DNA from: an uncultured Candidatus Binatia bacterium
GTDB taxonomy: Bacteria > Desulfobacterota > Binatia > UBA9968 > JAJDTQ01
Assembly (NCBI GenBank): GCA_965213675.1
Contig: OZ243916.1
Location: 1,920,001 to 1,984,000 of the forward strand
Reading direction: 5' to 3'
DNA: 64,000 nt
Shown here: positions 29,020 to 59,331 of the stretch, one piece after another
Layout of the letters: each line of letters opens with the position of its first letter
How positions within the stretch are numbered: position 1 is the stretch's first letter
Translations under genes and position numbers: made by a program
Notes under the pieces: model-generated
Databases searched by the model: none
What the model was told of the DNA's origin: nothing
The model's input: only the letters and a program-made list of their open reading frames with translations

Positions 29020-30572
29020 GGACCCCCCTTGACCTTGGCCTGGCGATGCCGCTTGCGGTATTCGAGCCGGTTCAGCGCATTCACGTACGCCAGCGCGCTC
29101 GCCATGATGATATCCGTGTGGGAACCTTTGCCGGAGATGTGGATGTCCTTCTCCTGGAGCATGCACGACACCTCGCCCTGGGCGTCCGTGCCGCCGGTGA
29201 CGCTGGCCACCGCGTAGCGCTGCAGCTGGGCGCGGCTCCCGGAGAGCTTGGCGATGGCTTTATAGCACGCATCCACCACCCCGTCACCCGTGTCGTGGGC
29301 CATCTTCTCCTCGCCGTCCACGCGCATGCGCACGGTGGCCGACGGCACCGCGGAAGAGCTGGACGCGATGTTCAGGTACATGAGCTCGTAGCGGTCCGGC
29401 TGGCTGGGAATGCGCAGCACCTCGTCCGCCACCAGCGCCTCGATATCCTCGTCGAAGACCTGCTTCTTCTTGTCCGCCAACGCCTTGAAGCGCTCGAAGG
29501 CACGGTTCACATCGTCCTTGTCGAGGGAGAACCCGAGCTGCTGCAGCCTTTCGCCGAAGGCGTGGCGCCCGGAATGCTTGCCCATCACCAGCCGGTTGCC
29601 GGTAATGCCCACGGTCTCGGGCTTCATGATCTCGTAGGTGAGCTTCTGCTTGAGCACGCCGTCCTGATGGATGCCGGCCTCGTGGGCAAAGGCGTTGTCC
29701 CCCACGATGGGCTTGTTGAGCGGCACCGTGATGCCGGTGACCTGGGAGAGCAGGCGCGAGGTCGGGTAGATCTGCTCCGTTTGGATGCGCGTGTCCAGGC
29801 CGAACACCGGCTGACGCGTCTTGAGCGCCATCACCACCTCTTCCAGCGATGTGTTGCCGGCGCGCTCGCCGATGCCGTTCACCGTGCATTCCACCTGCCG
29901 CGCGCCGTTGGCCACCGCGGCCAGGGAATTGGCCACGGCCAGGCCCAGGTCGTTGTGGCAGTGGGCGCTCCAGGTGACCGTTTCCGCGCCTTCGGTGTGC
30001 TCGATGAGGTAGCGCACCAGCTCGCCGAATTCCGACGGGATCGCGTAACCTGTGGTGTCGGGGATGTTGAGGGTCTTCGCTCCCGCGCGAATGGCCTCGC
30101 CGAAGACCTCCACCAGGAACTCCCGGTCGCTGCGCGAGGCATCCTCGGCCGAGAACTCGACGTAATCGAGGTAGCGGCGGGCGTGGGCCACCGCCGTGCC
30201 CACGGACTCCATCACCTCGTCGCGGGACATGCGCAGCTTGTGCTTCATGTGGATGTCCGAGGTGGCGATGAAGGTATGGAGGCCGGGCCTGTGCGCCCCG
30301 TCCACCGCCTTGGCCGCCTTGCGAATGTCGCCGAGCTGCGCCCGCGCCAGACTCAGCACGATGGGCCGCTCCACCGCCTTGCACACCTGTACCACCGACT
30401 CGAAGTCCCCGGGCGACGACGCCGCGAATCCCGCCTCGATGACGTCGACTCCCAGCTTGTCGAGTTGACGCGCGATGAGGACCTTCTCCTCGATGTTCAT
30501 GCTCGCCCCGGGAGACTGCTCGCCGTCCCTCAACGTGGTATCGAAAATGTTTACAATGTTGCTGGCGCCCAT
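29016..30572 (-). CDS. leuA: 2-isopropylmalate synthase
   Basis: [36 protein letters not shown]; GAGGAGG RBS. Confidence 0.97.
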
Positions 30573-30588
30573 GGTCTTCCTCCTCAAC

Positions 30589-30618
30589 AAAAAAAACTCC
30601 CGCGAAGGGCGGGAGTTT
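30589..30618 (-). terminator. Intrinsic terminator (probable attenuator) immediately upstream of leuA
   Basis: Minus strand AAACTCCCGC-CCTTC-GCGGGAG followed by T8, ending 16 nt before the leuA ATG. Confidence 0.85.
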
Positions 30619-30647
30619 CGGTGGTGCAAGCTGGGATTTGCTCAGGC

Positions 30648-31496
30648 TCAGGCTTGTACGGGTGCCTGCGCCTCCCTCCGTCGCGTCCGCACGGCGAGTA
30701 ACCATAGTAACGGGCCCGATAAGGTGTACAGCAACAACGCTGAGAAGAGCATGATCTGCCACATCGCAATGGTGAGTATAACGATTGCCATGGCGGAAAG
30801 CAATAACCAAATGGTGCTGCGCTTCTTGAAGTGGTGCTGCTTCAGACTCAGGTAGCGGAAGTTGCTGACCATCAGGGCCGCGAGCAAGCAAGTGACCCCG
30901 GTGAAGACCACGGGCCGGCTGGCCAGGCCGTCGAGCCCCAGCATCAGGAAGATGAACAGGGTGGCGGCGATCATGGCGGCCGCCGCCGGAATCGGCAGGC
31001 CCGTGAAGTAGCTCTTCTCCGCGGTCAGGGTCTGCACGTTGAAGCGCGCCAGCCGCAACGCCCCGCACACGGCGAAAAGTGCCGGTCCCAAGCCGCCCCA
31101 GGGACCCCAGGGCTCCAGGGCGAACACATACACCAGCACGGCGGGAGCCACGCCGAAGGAAACCACGTCCGCCAGCGAATCGAACTCGACGCCGAACTGG
31201 CTGGTGGTGTGGGTGAGGCGCGCCACCGCGCCATCGATCCCGTCCAGCAAATGCGCCGCCAGGATCCACAAGGCCGCCTGAGGGTACTCCCCCCGGATAG
31301 CGAAAAAGATGGCAAACACGCCGCAGACGAGGTTGCCCGCGGTGATCAGGCTTGGCAACAGGAACATCCCCTGCCGCAGCCGGGTGGACGGCCCGCGGCG
31401 TTTCAGACGGCGGCGGCGCACTTTTCCGCGTGGGATCAGCCGAACCCTCCGCGGCGGCGTTTCGGCATTCTCGGCGGTGTATTCGGAACTCTTCAT
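30648..31496 (-). CDS. pssA: CDP-diacylglycerol--serine O-phosphatidyltransferase
   Basis: LPSLITAGN, DGIDGAVAR...FGVEFDSLADVVSFGVAP, RLARFN, FTGLPIP. Confidence 0.93.
   Translation of the reverse strand: MKSSEYTAENAETPPRRVRLIPRGKVRRRRLKRRGPSTRLRQGMFLLPSLITAGNLVCGVFAIFFAIRGEYPQAALWILAAHLLDGIDGAVARLTHTTSQFGVEFDSLADVVSFGVAPAVLVYVFALEPWGPWGGLGPALFAVCGALRLARFNVQTLTAEKSYFTGLPIPAAAAMIAATLFIFLMLGLDGLASRPVVFTGVTCLLAALMVSNFRYLSLKQHHFKKRSTIWLLLSAMAIVILTIAMWQIMLFSALLLYTLSGPLLWLLAVRTRRREAQAPVQA
30775..30803 (-). promoter_or_regulatory. Putative sigma70 promoter for leuA nested inside pssA
   Basis: TTGCTT-17 nt-TATACT on the minus strand, spelled by pssA codons TTG CTT ... GTT ATA CTC. Confidence 0.6.
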
Positions 31497-33808: not shown

Positions 33809-35584
33809 TTACGCCGGCAGAACGGCGTCGGCATCCTCTTTCTTCTTCCGCGAAGGCTTGCGCGCGGTCTTCAGTTGCGGCGGGTCCTCCAGCATCATCT
33901 CATGCTGCGCGCCGCCGGCGGGAATCATCGGATAACAGTTCTCGAACCGGTCGATGACGAAGTCCATCATCACCGGGCCCTTGTGCTTCAAGCCCTCCTT
34001 CAGCACCGCCTCGACGTCCGCGGGACCCTCGGAGCGGAGCCCCAGGATGCCATAGGCGTCGGCGAGCTTGACGAAGTCGGGGACCGTGCCCAGTTGGCTG
34101 GAGGCGTAACGACCCTCGTAGAAGAGATCCTGCCATTGCCGCACCATCCCGTGGAATCCGTTGTTGAGCAGGATGATCTTCACCGGCAGTTCGTGGATGG
34201 CGGCCACGGCCAGCTCCTGAAGATTCATCTGGAAGCTGCCTTCGCTGGTGATGCACAGCACGGCCTTGTTGGGATAGGCCTTCTGCGCGCCCAGGGCGGC
34301 GGGGAAACCGAAGCCCATGGTGCCGAGCCCGCCCGATGTGAGGAACGTACGCTGGAGGCCGCTCTTGAAGTACTGCGCCGCCCACATCTGGTGCTGACCC
34401 ACGTCGGTGACCACAATGGCCTTGTGCTTCGTAAGCTCGTACGCCTTGTCGATGACATACTGCGGCTTGGTCTCCTTCTTGCCCTCCTGCTGGTACGCCA
34501 GCGGATGCTGCGCCGCCCAGGCGTTCACCTGCTTGAGCCAAGGTGCGCGCTGCGTCTTCACGCTCGCGGGATTGCCGTCCATGGAACTCAGCACCTGGAC
34601 CAGCTCCTTCAGCACCGCCTTGACGTCACCCACGATGGGGATGTGCGCGTGGACGTTCTTCTTGATGGACGTGGGATCGATATCGATGTGGATGACCCGC
34701 GCGCGTGGCGAGAATTCGGACAACTTGCCGGTCACGCGGTCGTCGAAGCGGGCGCCCACGGCGATGAGGAGGTCGGCTTCGTGCATGGCCATGTTGGCGC
34801 AATAGGTGCCGTGCATGCCCAGCATGCCCATGCACAGCGGATGCGTGCCGGGGAAGGAACCGAGCCCCATCACCGTCATGGTCACAGGAACCTGGGTCAG
34901 GTCCGCGAGCTCGCGCACCTCGTTGGACGCACCCGAGAACACCGCGCCGCCGCCCACGTAGATCACCGGCCGCTTGGCCTTGAGAATCTCGCCGGCCGCC
35001 TGCTTGATCTGGAAGCGGTTGCCGGAGACCGTCGGCCGGTAGCCCCGGAGCGAGACCTTGTCCGGGTAATGGAAGTCGGCGGATTCCGTGGTGACGTCCT
35101 TGGGGATATCCACCAGAACCGGGCCGGGGCGGCCGGTGTTGGCGATATAGAAGGCCTCCTTGATGACGGTGGCGAGATCCTTGACGTCCTTCACCAGCAC
35201 GTTGTGCTTGGTGCAGGGACGGCTGATGCCGATGTTGTCCGCCTCCTGGAAGGCATCGTTGCCGATGAGGCTGGTGGGAACCTGCCCGGTGAACGCCACC
35301 AGCGGCACCGAATCCATCATGGCATCCGCCAGGCCGGTGACGATGTTGGTCATGCCCGGTCCCGAGGTTACCAGCGCCACGCCCGCCTTGCCCGTGGCCT
35401 TGGCGTAGCCCTCGGCCATATGGATCGCGCCCTGCTCATGCCGGGTCAGGACAACCTCGACGTCGTTCTGCTGGTGCAGGACGTCAAACAACTTGAGGAC
35501 CACGCCGCCAGGGATGCCGAAAATGGTCTTCACTCCCTCGCGCTTGAGCGCTTCCACAAAGATTTCCGACCCGGTCAACTTCAT
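33809..35584 (-). CDS. ilvB: Acetolactate synthase large subunit
   Basis: RHEQGA, TSGPG, AFQEAD, RFDDRVTG, DVGQHQMW, SGGLGTMGFG. Confidence 0.96.
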   Translation of the reverse strand: MKLTGSEIFVEALKREGVKTIFGIPGGVVLKLFDVLHQQNDVEVVLTRHEQGAIHMAEGYAKATGKAGVALVTSGPGMTNIVTGLADAMMDSVPLVAFTGQVPTSLIGNDAFQEADNIGISRPCTKHNVLVKDVKDLATVIKEAFYIANTGRPGPVLVDIPKDVTTESADFHYPDKVSLRGYRPTVSGNRFQIKQAAGEILKAKRPVIYVGGGAVFSGASNEVRELADLTQVPVTMTVMGLGSFPGTHPLCMGMLGMHGTYCANMAMHEADLLIAVGARFDDRVTGKLSEFSPRARVIHIDIDPTSIKKNVHAHIPIVGDVKAVLKELVQVLSSMDGNPASVKTQRAPWLKQVNAWAAQHPLAYQQEGKKETKPQYVIDKAYELTKHKAIVVTDVGQHQMWAAQYFKSGLQRTFLTSGGLGTMGFGFPAALGAQKAYPNKAVLCITSEGSFQMNLQELAVAAIHELPVKIILLNNGFHGMVRQWQDLFYEGRYASSQLGTVPDFVKLADAYGILGLRSEGPADVEAVLKEGLKHKGPVMMDFVIDRFENCYPMIPAGGAQHEMMLEDPPQLKTARKPSRKKKEDADAVLPA

Positions 35585-59218: not shown

Positions 59219-59331
59219 CAGGACCAGGCTCAGGACAGACGAAGCGAAGTCGACGGGCGTCGTCACATTGGAGCGGAGGCCCCCAAATGCGCTTCGTTGG
59301 ACAATTGCCCGCGGTTCTCTATAGTGACCCG

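Follow-up and report, generated by a model that had tools for sequence, protein, structure and literature searches.

A candidate leucine attenuator of leuA with its putative sensor in the in-frame 3′ end of pssA

The pssA-leuA junction

The window analyzed here is a stretch of 64,000 nucleotides (nt) from an uncultured Candidatus Binatia bacterium (contig OZ243916.1; genome of 4.5 Mb, 65.3% G+C). Our subject is the junction of pssA and leuA in a minus-strand operon with the gene order ilvB-ilvN-ilvC-psd-pssA-leuA-leuB-asd, each gene identified by an NCBIfam model that scores above its cut-off. At this junction, the in-frame 3′ end of pssA probably acts as the leucine sensor of a transcription attenuator, with leuA as the first gene under control, followed by leuB and asd. 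The features of the junction are as follows.

30648 to 31496, minus strand: pssA, CDP-diacylglycerol--serine O-phosphatidyltransferase, 282 amino acids (TIGR00473, 138.9 bits against a cut-off of 107)
30775 to 30803, minus strand: promoter-like site within pssA, −35 TTGCTT (30803-30798), 17-nt spacer, −10 TATACT (30780-30775)
30750 to 30764, minus strand: in-frame candidate starts of a putative nested leader, ATG 30764-30762 and ATG 30752-30750
30696 to 30737, minus strand: cluster of candidate leucine control codons, TTG TTG CTG tac acc TTA tcg ggc ccg TTA CTA tgg TTA CTC, encoding LLLYTLSGPLLWLL
30674 to 30698, minus strand: hairpin 1:2, region 1 (CUCGCCGUGC) with region 2 (GCGACGGAGGG), from the RNAalifold consensus of 28 genus sequences
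30672 to 30683, minus strand: region 2 as candidate antiterminator 5′ strand, CGA CGG AGG GAG (Arg-Arg-Arg-Glu), CGACGGAGGGAG, complementary to the terminator 5′ arm
30626 to 30669, minus strand: candidate inner helices around the pssA stop codon, GCAGGC (30669-30664) with GCUUGC (30631-30626), or CAGGC with GCCUG (30653-30649)
30648 to 30650, minus strand: pssA stop codon TGA, 32 nt 5′ of the CTCCCG core of the terminator and 29 nt 5′ of the AAA at the stem base
30589 to 30618, minus strand: intrinsic terminator from a terminator scan, AAACTCCCGC (region 3), loop CCTTC, GCGGGAGTTT (region 4), T8 at 30596-30589
30572 to 29016, minus strand: leuA, 2-isopropylmalate synthase (NF002086, 765 bits), with the Shine-Dalgarno sequence GAGGAGG at 30585-30579

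Relatives of the locus were found by sequence, and the 17 loci looked at for their source are all from metagenome-assembled genomes. For the order we used the 30 loci of a first draw and 60 more junctions from two other families, f2 and f3, giving 90. Locus L140, whose pssA is cut short by a premature TAG, entered the count of hairpin presence but no alignment and no other count, leaving 89 tabulated loci. Codon counts in the window's genus refer to 25 loci, one per species, motif and RNA work to 28 genus loci, and comparisons with families f2 and f3 to 61 loci. For the class, 40 stretches were fetched and 31 junctions analyzed; the others (L149, L150, L165, L169, L176 and L179-L182) were dropped, since tblastn did not locate the 3′ end of pssA in them, probably owing to missed offsets.

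An intrinsic terminator directly before leuA

A first-pass annotation of this DNA had described an intrinsic terminator 16 nt before the leuA ATG and a pssA-leuA gap devoid of a leader open reading frame (ORF). Both points hold. The terminator scan gives a hairpin at 30619-30593 with 11 pairs (6 G-C) around a 5-nt loop. Its T-run ends, with T8, at 30589, 16 nt from the leuA ATG at 30572, and the 75-nt gap contains no leader ORF. Since the terminator lies this close to the gene, all leuA transcripts have to read through it. The hairpin sequence occurs once in the 4.5-Mb genome.

Throughout the order the arrangement is stable. leuA lies next to pssA in 30/30 and 60/60 loci, with a gap of 71–123 nt in most of them. 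The terminator (CTCCCG...CGGGAG plus T-run) is kept in 90/90 loci with variation in the loop, and its closing pair covaries (A-U in 39, G-U in 15, G-C in 7). From the pssA stop codon to CTCCCG there are 23–37 nt, with a median of 30 (89 loci).

Two further observations concern the DNA between this terminator and leuA. Four loci (L030, L126, L127, L135) carry insertions of ~150–290 nt with internal inverted repeats between the terminator and the leuA ribosome-binding site, which look like small mobile or repeat elements. In L098, L099, L144 and similar f3 loci, a conserved GCCAACGG lies 10–35 nt 3′ of the terminator T-run and is complementary to CCGUUGGC in the terminator 5′ arm and loop; in read-through RNA it could supplant the terminator hairpin, affecting leuA translation or RNA stability.

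Rare leucine codons at the end of pssA

The first-pass annotation had counted 13 leucines in the last 53 codons of pssA, among them four TTA and one CTA, with neither codon earlier in the gene, and our codon counts agree. The last 60 codons hold 13 leucine codons (4 TTA, 3 TTG, 1 CTT, 3 CTC, 1 CTA, 1 CTG), and all five TTA/CTA codons of pssA fall in the last 53; none occurs in the rest of pssA, nor in ilvB, ilvN, ilvC, leuA or asd. The leucine enrichment falls on the final ~30 sense codons of the gene. Within the cluster at 30737-30696 there are 7 leucines in 14 codons, 4 of them TTA/CTA. Across 3145 putative ORFs of the genome, TTA accounts for 186 and CTA for 865 of 92,855 leucine codons (~0.2% and ~0.9%), and four TTA among 13 leucine codons is therefore far beyond chance. 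Windows of 20 codons with at least three TTA/CTA occur in 32 ORFs and windows with four in 4 ORFs; three TTA are found in the pssA window only. The genome has one gene each for tRNA-Leu(UAA) and tRNA-Leu(UAG), the readers of TTA and CTA.

The bias is shared by the genus. In the last 60 codons of pssA from 25 species, 69 TTA and 44 CTA make up 30% of 374 leucine codons, against a background of 1% (1 TTA and 14 CTA of 1528) in the body of pssA plus leuA. Individual positions behave in the same way: the codon for Leu259 is always rare, being TTA in 7/25 loci and CTA in 18/25, and that for Leu254 is TTA in 16, CTA in 4 and TTG in 4. This swapping of TTA and CTA at fixed positions is as expected from selection for rarity rather than for a given nucleotide. 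In an 18-codon window around the Ser-Gly-Pro (SGP) motif, TTA/CTA make up 54% of leucine codons and A/T-ending codons 10% of the others (28 loci). The rare-codon bias of the pssA tail is leucine specific.

The encoded peptide is conserved as well. YTLSGP is kept in 87/89 loci of the order, though PssA identity drops to 52–60%. Y-x-x-SGP is a PssA motif throughout the phylum, and since archaetidylserine synthase profiles match residues 44–263, this region is part of canonical PssA.

Leucine control at the same junction in the class and phylum

The first-pass annotation had proposed aligning pssA-leuA junctions across relatives. In such a comparison the rare leucine codons, the raised leucine content of the tail and the terminator are conserved throughout the order, and the rare codons and raised leucine content are largely absent from PssA tails where a separate leader, a T-box, an overlap or another gene follows pssA. 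The groups compare as follows (18-residue window around SGP).

Group; loci; mean leucines; mean TTA/CTA codons
Window's order; 89; 6.5; 3.1
Short-gap loci of families f83 and f80; 5; 4.0; 1.2
pssA-leuA gap >20 nt (separate leader ORF, T-box or other); 33; 2.7; 0.18
Genes overlapping or gap ≤20 nt; 6; 3.0; 0.67
leuA not following; 23; 3.1; 0.35

In four genomes from other orders of the class (L048-L051), pssA and leuA are separated by 201–315 nt. Each of these four gaps contains a terminator, read as a hairpin with a T-run, and a free-standing leucine-rich ORF, with MSRAFLLLDAALLGELLLTSPSVADVVV and MTSRNDITTLASLLLRCPSGASAVV as examples. Among the 31 further class junctions, 19 have a leucine-rich ORF in a gap of 181–351 nt; five, from families f83 and f80, have a gap of 79–110 nt that lacks a leader ORF and contains the shared terminator core, and the fetched DNA of the remaining seven shows no leuA after pssA. 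Separate leucine-rich leader ORFs thus number 23 (L048-L051, L157-L163, L166-L167, L171-L175, L177-L178, L183, L186-L187). Elsewhere in the phylum, T-box leaders (RF00230, 104–108 bits) lie between pssA and leuA in L067 (592-867) and L071 (555-819), and an Rfam search of 13 related loci returned nothing but these two T-boxes.

There are probably three kinds of leucine control at the pssA-leuA junction within the phylum. The separate leaders and T-boxes make this junction a recurrent site of such control, and the window's order appears as the one without a separate leader. pssA also adjoins leuA in Betaproteobacteria.

The group with gaps >20 nt has exceptions. L062 and L075, from other classes of the phylum, and L078 have leucine runs or CTA codons in the PssA tail, as in RLLLLLGLLK or in SLLLLTGLLKK with three CTA. 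A strong terminator follows pssA in L062 and L075, with a 5′ arm complementary to tail codons. The three loci look like independent cases of a leucine sensor fused to pssA.

Alternative RNA structures around the pssA stop codon

Region 1 starts with the last leucine codon of the cluster, and its hairpin with region 2 (30698-30674), which the first-pass annotation had overlooked, has 9 pairs (alignment columns 70-94) and is almost invariant in the genus, including synonymous sites. The codons of region 2 are invariant (CGA in 24/24, CGG in 25/25 and AGG in 25/25). As an alternative to hairpin 1:2, CGGAGGGAG (30680-30672) is able to pair with CUCCCGCC (30615-30608), its predicted partner in the terminator arm being CTCCCGCC.

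The segments that had been proposed to form an antiterminator (30683-30672, GCAGGC at 30669-30664 and GCTTGC at 30631-30626) are present and able to pair as described, with 92% of cells paired in the 28 genus sequences; for the inner helix the share is 95%. RNAalifold predicts an alternative local hairpin, CAGGC:GCCUG, and the folding data favour neither inner helix. In the window the 2:3 duplex has a free energy of −13.1 kcal/mol versus −15.8 for the terminator, and the genus means are −15.6 versus −17.9. A fold of 30730-30560 alone is unremarkable (z-score −1.47).

Families f2 and f3 have a stronger version of the same arrangement. Here region 2 is (G/A)CGGGAG, made of Arg-Arg-Glu codons, and copies the terminator 3′ arm. 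In minimum free energy (MFE) folds, which for these families and for the genus were made on a transcript truncated before region 4, CUCCCG pairs upstream in 58/61 loci, in 51 of these at a common position, 33 nt 5′ of the stop codon; the mean z-score is −2.25. The 2:3 duplex averages −21.8 kcal/mol versus −18.8 for the terminator. Its helix is 89.7% paired, versus 39–56% with a slid partner, and one pair occurs as A-U, G-U and G-C; the covariation score was reached in 0/500 shuffles, a comparison in which related sequences can beat shuffles without structure. In example folds the purine run past region 2 pairs with the pyrimidine run just past the stop codon. Of the 13 bases that start with the stop codon, a mean of 9.0 are paired, so that a ribosome terminating there would either melt this inner helix or cover it. 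In families f83 and f80 the terminator core is retained with a different region 2, GCCAGCGGG, matched to CCCGCUGGC in the terminator arm of these families.

The candidate antiterminator is strong, fixed in position and covarying in the sister families and weak in the window's genus. Of the earlier proposal, the pairing segments stand; in the genus itself the helix is thermodynamically weak and its covariation near-uninformative.

A promoter-like site and candidate starts within pssA

TTGCTT-17-TATACT, previously described as a near-consensus promoter, is present and identical in 28/28 genus loci. Its −35 box matches 3/6 positions, and for that reason a consensus promoter scan did not list the site. 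Synonymous variation in pssA reaches its minimum here, at codons 224–240 (entropy 0.195 versus a gene mean of 0.39). At the same offset, TTG(C/G)TT-17-TAnnnT occurs in 37/61 f2/f3 loci while the encoded residue varies between Ile, Lys and Thr; two of the remaining 24 have 16-nt spacing, three match at another offset and 19 have no match. Genome wide, TTGNNN-17-TATANT occurs 16 times on both strands. Several of these sites lie just 5′ of ORF starts, and at least one other (C1:576946) looks intragenic, so we used the rarity of the motif alone and not the promoter status of every site. On grounds of conservation, an internal promoter in pssA is likely.

The first internal ATG is present in 28/28 genus loci. 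At the second position, 25 of these read GTG, 2 ATG and 1 GTC, and 57/61 f2/f3 loci read ATG. An in-frame ATG lies 10 nt past the −10 box in the genus (28/28) and 22 nt past it in f2/f3 (57/61). A nested leader may be translated independently from an internal ATG; ribosomes completing full-length PssA could also work the switch alone.

Three other observations touch on such starts or on the promoter-like site. At position 59297 of the window (C1:1979297), an ATG 6 nt past TTGGAC-17-TATAGT opens a frame whose G+C content at third codon positions is 0.94. This frame is likely to yield a leaderless mRNA, which suggests leaderless starts for the organism; an identical copy at contig C16:4008 may be a repeat or an assembly duplicate. 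In L140 (G260:C29:15852-16632), from a genome with 9% contamination, the in-frame TAG lies ~63 codons before the normal end of pssA, and the DNA 3′ of it still has an intact internal ATG, LLYTLSGPLLW and terminator. The TAG may reflect an error in sequencing; alternatively, L140 may be a natural example of a sensor translated apart from PssA. Finally, the candidate leader of L051 (G116) starts TTG TTG CTT TCG GCC (LLLSA). This almost equals the stretch at 30813-30799 that forms the −35 region in the genus, which reads TTG TTG CTT TCC GCG in most members and TTA TTG CTT TCC GCC in the window. The likeness may be coincidence or a trace of shared origin.

The start of the operon

The first gene of the operon and its surroundings were also inspected.

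33809 to 35584, minus strand: ilvB (NCBIfam model above cut-off)

On the minus strand, a promoter-like TTGACA-17-TAGTTT lies near 35891-35863, and a small ORF at ~35823-35600, starting MEEREEQMIASVLDKDPELRKYYEEHL, is directly 5′ of ilvB. Neither a Val/Ile/Leu leader peptide nor a terminator was found in the region upstream of ilvB. A GC-rich palindrome at ~35965-35921 resembles the terminator of the gene upstream of the ilvB operon.

Discussion

We propose that leuA-leuB-asd are probably controlled by a ribosome-mediated, leucine-sensing transcription attenuator whose sensor is the in-frame 3′ end of pssA and not a dedicated leader gene. The suggestion that the pssA 3′ end doubles as leucine sensor and as part of an alternative RNA structure was already the core of the first-pass annotation, and the comparison across relatives supports it. 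The leucine dependence of the switch is entirely inferred, and in what follows the mechanism is accordingly given as a model.

If charged tRNA-Leu were scarce, a ribosome would stall on the leucine codons at 30710-30696 and cover region 1. Region 2 (30683-30672) would then be free to pair with region 3 (30615-30608), assisted by the inner helix around the stop codon; the terminator would not form and RNA polymerase would proceed into leuA. With plentiful leucine, the ribosome would cross region 2 and reach the stop codon at 30650, melting or occupying the inner helix. Hairpin 1:2 would re-form behind the terminating ribosome, the 3:4 terminator would form and transcription would end. The ribosome could come from translation of full-length pssA on the operon transcript, or could initiate internally, at ATG 30764 or 30752, on transcripts that begin at the 30803-30775 site. 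In the latter case the internal promoter would supply leuA-leuB-asd with a regulated transcript of their own.

How would the position of the ribosome be read? The first-pass annotation had suggested folding the RNA with ribosome-masked segments. In equilibrium partition-function folds made in this way, the terminator forms with a probability of ~1.0 in 28/28 genus sequences under every condition, a result that speaks against a ribosome-operated switch. In classical attenuators the terminator likewise wins at equilibrium. Since it wins here whatever the position of the ribosome, the switch must, as in those attenuators, be kinetic; and since equilibrium folds cannot discriminate, we used folds truncated before region 4 instead. 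The mean probability that CUCCCG pairs upstream in these truncated transcripts is as follows.

No ribosome: genus 0.33; f2/f3 0.82
Ribosome stalled on the leucine codons: genus 0.62–0.70; f2/f3 0.93–0.95
Ribosome at the stop codon: genus 0.45; f2/f3 0.74

These modeled values follow the direction that the attenuator predicts, with modest differences.

Several other points weigh against a leucine-sensing attenuator in pssA. In the genus the 2:3 helix is short (5 base pairs, a mismatch, then 2–3 base pairs), forms in 14/28 MFE folds with a mean z-score of −0.48, and is equaled by shuffled upstream sequence in 36% of trials; its covariation amounts to one compensatory change, A-U to G-C, in two related sequences. 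In textbook leaders the ribosome masks region 2 as it terminates, whereas here the stop codon comes ~21 nt after that region, and the two leucine positions nearest region 1 are the common codons CTG CTC in most genus members. The promoter-like motif is missing at its offset in 22/61 f2/f3 loci. Shine-Dalgarno-like motifs precede the internal starts in 0/28 genus loci and 15/61 f2/f3 loci; of the nested leader proposed earlier, the in-frame ATGs at 30764 and 30752 are there, but independent initiation at them has no such motif to back it in the genus. Rfam returned no family at threshold between 26000 and 37000, Leu_leader included, the best overlapping match being Hrs13 (20.3 bits versus 52). 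Finally, a search of public runs found no raw RNA reads of this organism. That search gave one metatranscriptome that contains 5% of the words, four runs holding the stretch whose kind is not stated and one run guessed to be RNA. Of two runs compared with the locus, one gave no matching contig and the other gave contigs of relatives (<95% identity), among which one 175-nt RNA-library contig spans the terminator (30514-30644), with DNA carry-over possible and the ends of transcripts not shown.

Could the terminator be constitutive? It would then set the ratio of ilv-psd-pssA to leuA-leuB-asd, perhaps together with an internal promoter and without sensing leucine, and the rare leucine codons would serve to slow translation for some other end, for example while the last PssA helix folds or inserts into the membrane. 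The equilibrium folds, which form the terminator at any ribosome position, and the weak antiterminator of the genus agree with this view, and since Y-x-x-SGP occurs phylum-wide in PssA, the region is constrained as protein anyway. However, the rarity is confined to leucine codons, leucine content and rare codons are up only in lineages without a separate leader, and sister orders carry leucine-leader attenuators at the same junction. A constitutive terminator would also leave the synonymous constraint on RRRE and its complementarity to the terminator arm unexplained, and we consider it unlikely.

It is also conceivable that the terminator reads how closely the ribosomes finishing pssA trail RNA polymerase, as at pyrE, and thus responds to the general rate of translation or transcription or to nucleotide supply, with neither nested leader nor internal promoter. 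As in rph-pyrE (PMC2784333, citing Bonekamp et al. 1984), the leader would be a full-length functional gene. The lack of Shine-Dalgarno sequences at the internal starts fits this view, as does the ribosome-free default fold of f2/f3, which is the antiterminator (0.82 upstream pairing of CUCCCG). Against it, a stop codon 23–37 nt before CTCCCG is too far for direct blocking of the hairpin, and the leucine-specific rare codons and the identity of the regulated genes, leuA and leuB, indicate leucine; we regard this coupling as improbable. Antitermination in trans by an RNA-binding protein, an uncharged tRNA or a small RNA that recognizes RNA 30700-30590, with the leucine codons incidental, would fit the genus data, in which CTCGCCGTGCGGAAGCGACGGAGGGA and CAGCTTGC are extremely conserved as nucleotides and covary little, and the T-boxes serving the junction in other members of the phylum. 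It is nevertheless very improbable, as the window has neither a T-box nor another Rfam match, the conserved blocks differ among families while leucine codons and complementarity persist, and no candidate factor was found.

A leucine attenuator with its sensor in pssA thus remains our preferred reading. An extension of it, which we put forward tentatively and hold to be rather doubtful, is that ~230 nt are read in four overlapping ways: as the last helix and tail of an essential lipid enzyme, as a sigma-70-type promoter, as a nested leader translated from a near-leaderless transcript, and as region 1/2 RNA. Under the same joint reading this arrangement would be conserved across the order and would have arisen more than once, each time by absorption of a free-standing leader into pssA. 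The suggestion of repeated origin comes from families f83 and f80, which use another region 2, and from the unrelated L062 and L075, with their leucine-run tails and terminators.

Comparison with known systems

The classical attenuators of amino-acid operons are those of leuL, trpL and hisL in E. coli and Salmonella (Rfam Leu_leader, RF00512), and leuL uses rare CUA codons. Like the classical leu attenuator, the pssA-leuA junction has an intrinsic terminator directly before the first biosynthetic gene, a preceding translated stretch rich in rare cognate codons, and a segment resembling the terminator 3′ arm that can pair with the 5′ arm (2:3 versus 3:4); in the window's genus it also has a 1:2 hairpin overlapping the candidate control codons. 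Unlike the classical case, there is no dedicated leader gene of 14–30 codons: the control codons and regions 1 and 2 would be sense codons of a 282-residue enzyme, and the stop codon lies ~21 nt beyond region 2, in the inner helix, and not between regions 1 and 2. On attenuators of the classical kind see also Elf and Ehrenberg (2005; PMC1183508).

According to PMC2784333, which cites Bonekamp et al. (1984), rph-pyrE of E. coli is an intercistronic attenuator that follows a full-length functional gene. It resembles the pssA-leuA junction in lying between two cistrons and, on the reading proposed here, in using the end of a full-length functional gene as leader and in the importance of the stop position; it senses uridine triphosphate via polymerase pausing, and a ribosome next to the hairpin blocks it sterically. 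The pssA-leuA junction differs from it in having a stop codon 23–37 nt from the hairpin core, rare cognate codons and a candidate antiterminator helix, and likely an internal promoter. The nearest precedent for a full-length upstream gene as leader is rph-pyrE.

A full-text literature search, with subscription journals and supplementary files outside its range, returned no description of an amino-acid attenuator embedded in pssA or in another enzyme. To our knowledge, the sensor in leader-peptide attenuation has always been described as a tiny dedicated ORF in the 5′ leader. What would be new here is a sensor and an antiterminator strand, and probably a promoter as well, made up of the codons with which a mid-operon gene encodes a functional enzyme. 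Such an arrangement would show the extent to which regulatory RNA and protein coding can overlap, and it would account for the otherwise odd, invariant PssA tail, LLYTLSGPLLW...RRRE. It also carries a warning for annotation, since searches limited to intergenic regions can miss attenuators of this kind.

A further comparison is with the separate leaders of the same class. They occupy the same junction and have a similar leucine run followed by S/C-P (LLLTSPS and LLLRCPSG, compared with LLYTLSGP here). They are free-standing, with ~16–50 codons (most 25–50) in gaps of 181–351 nt, and their leucine codons read mostly common CTC, CTG and CTT; in the window's order, unlike these, the sensor would lie inside pssA. 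In L067 and L071 a T-box leader (RF00230) controls leuA 3′ of pssA; the window has no match to it and a gap far too short to hold one. With a separate leader, a probable embedded leader and a T-box, one class offers a natural series at a single junction, which should be useful for studying how attenuators are born, move and fuse with the genes beside them.

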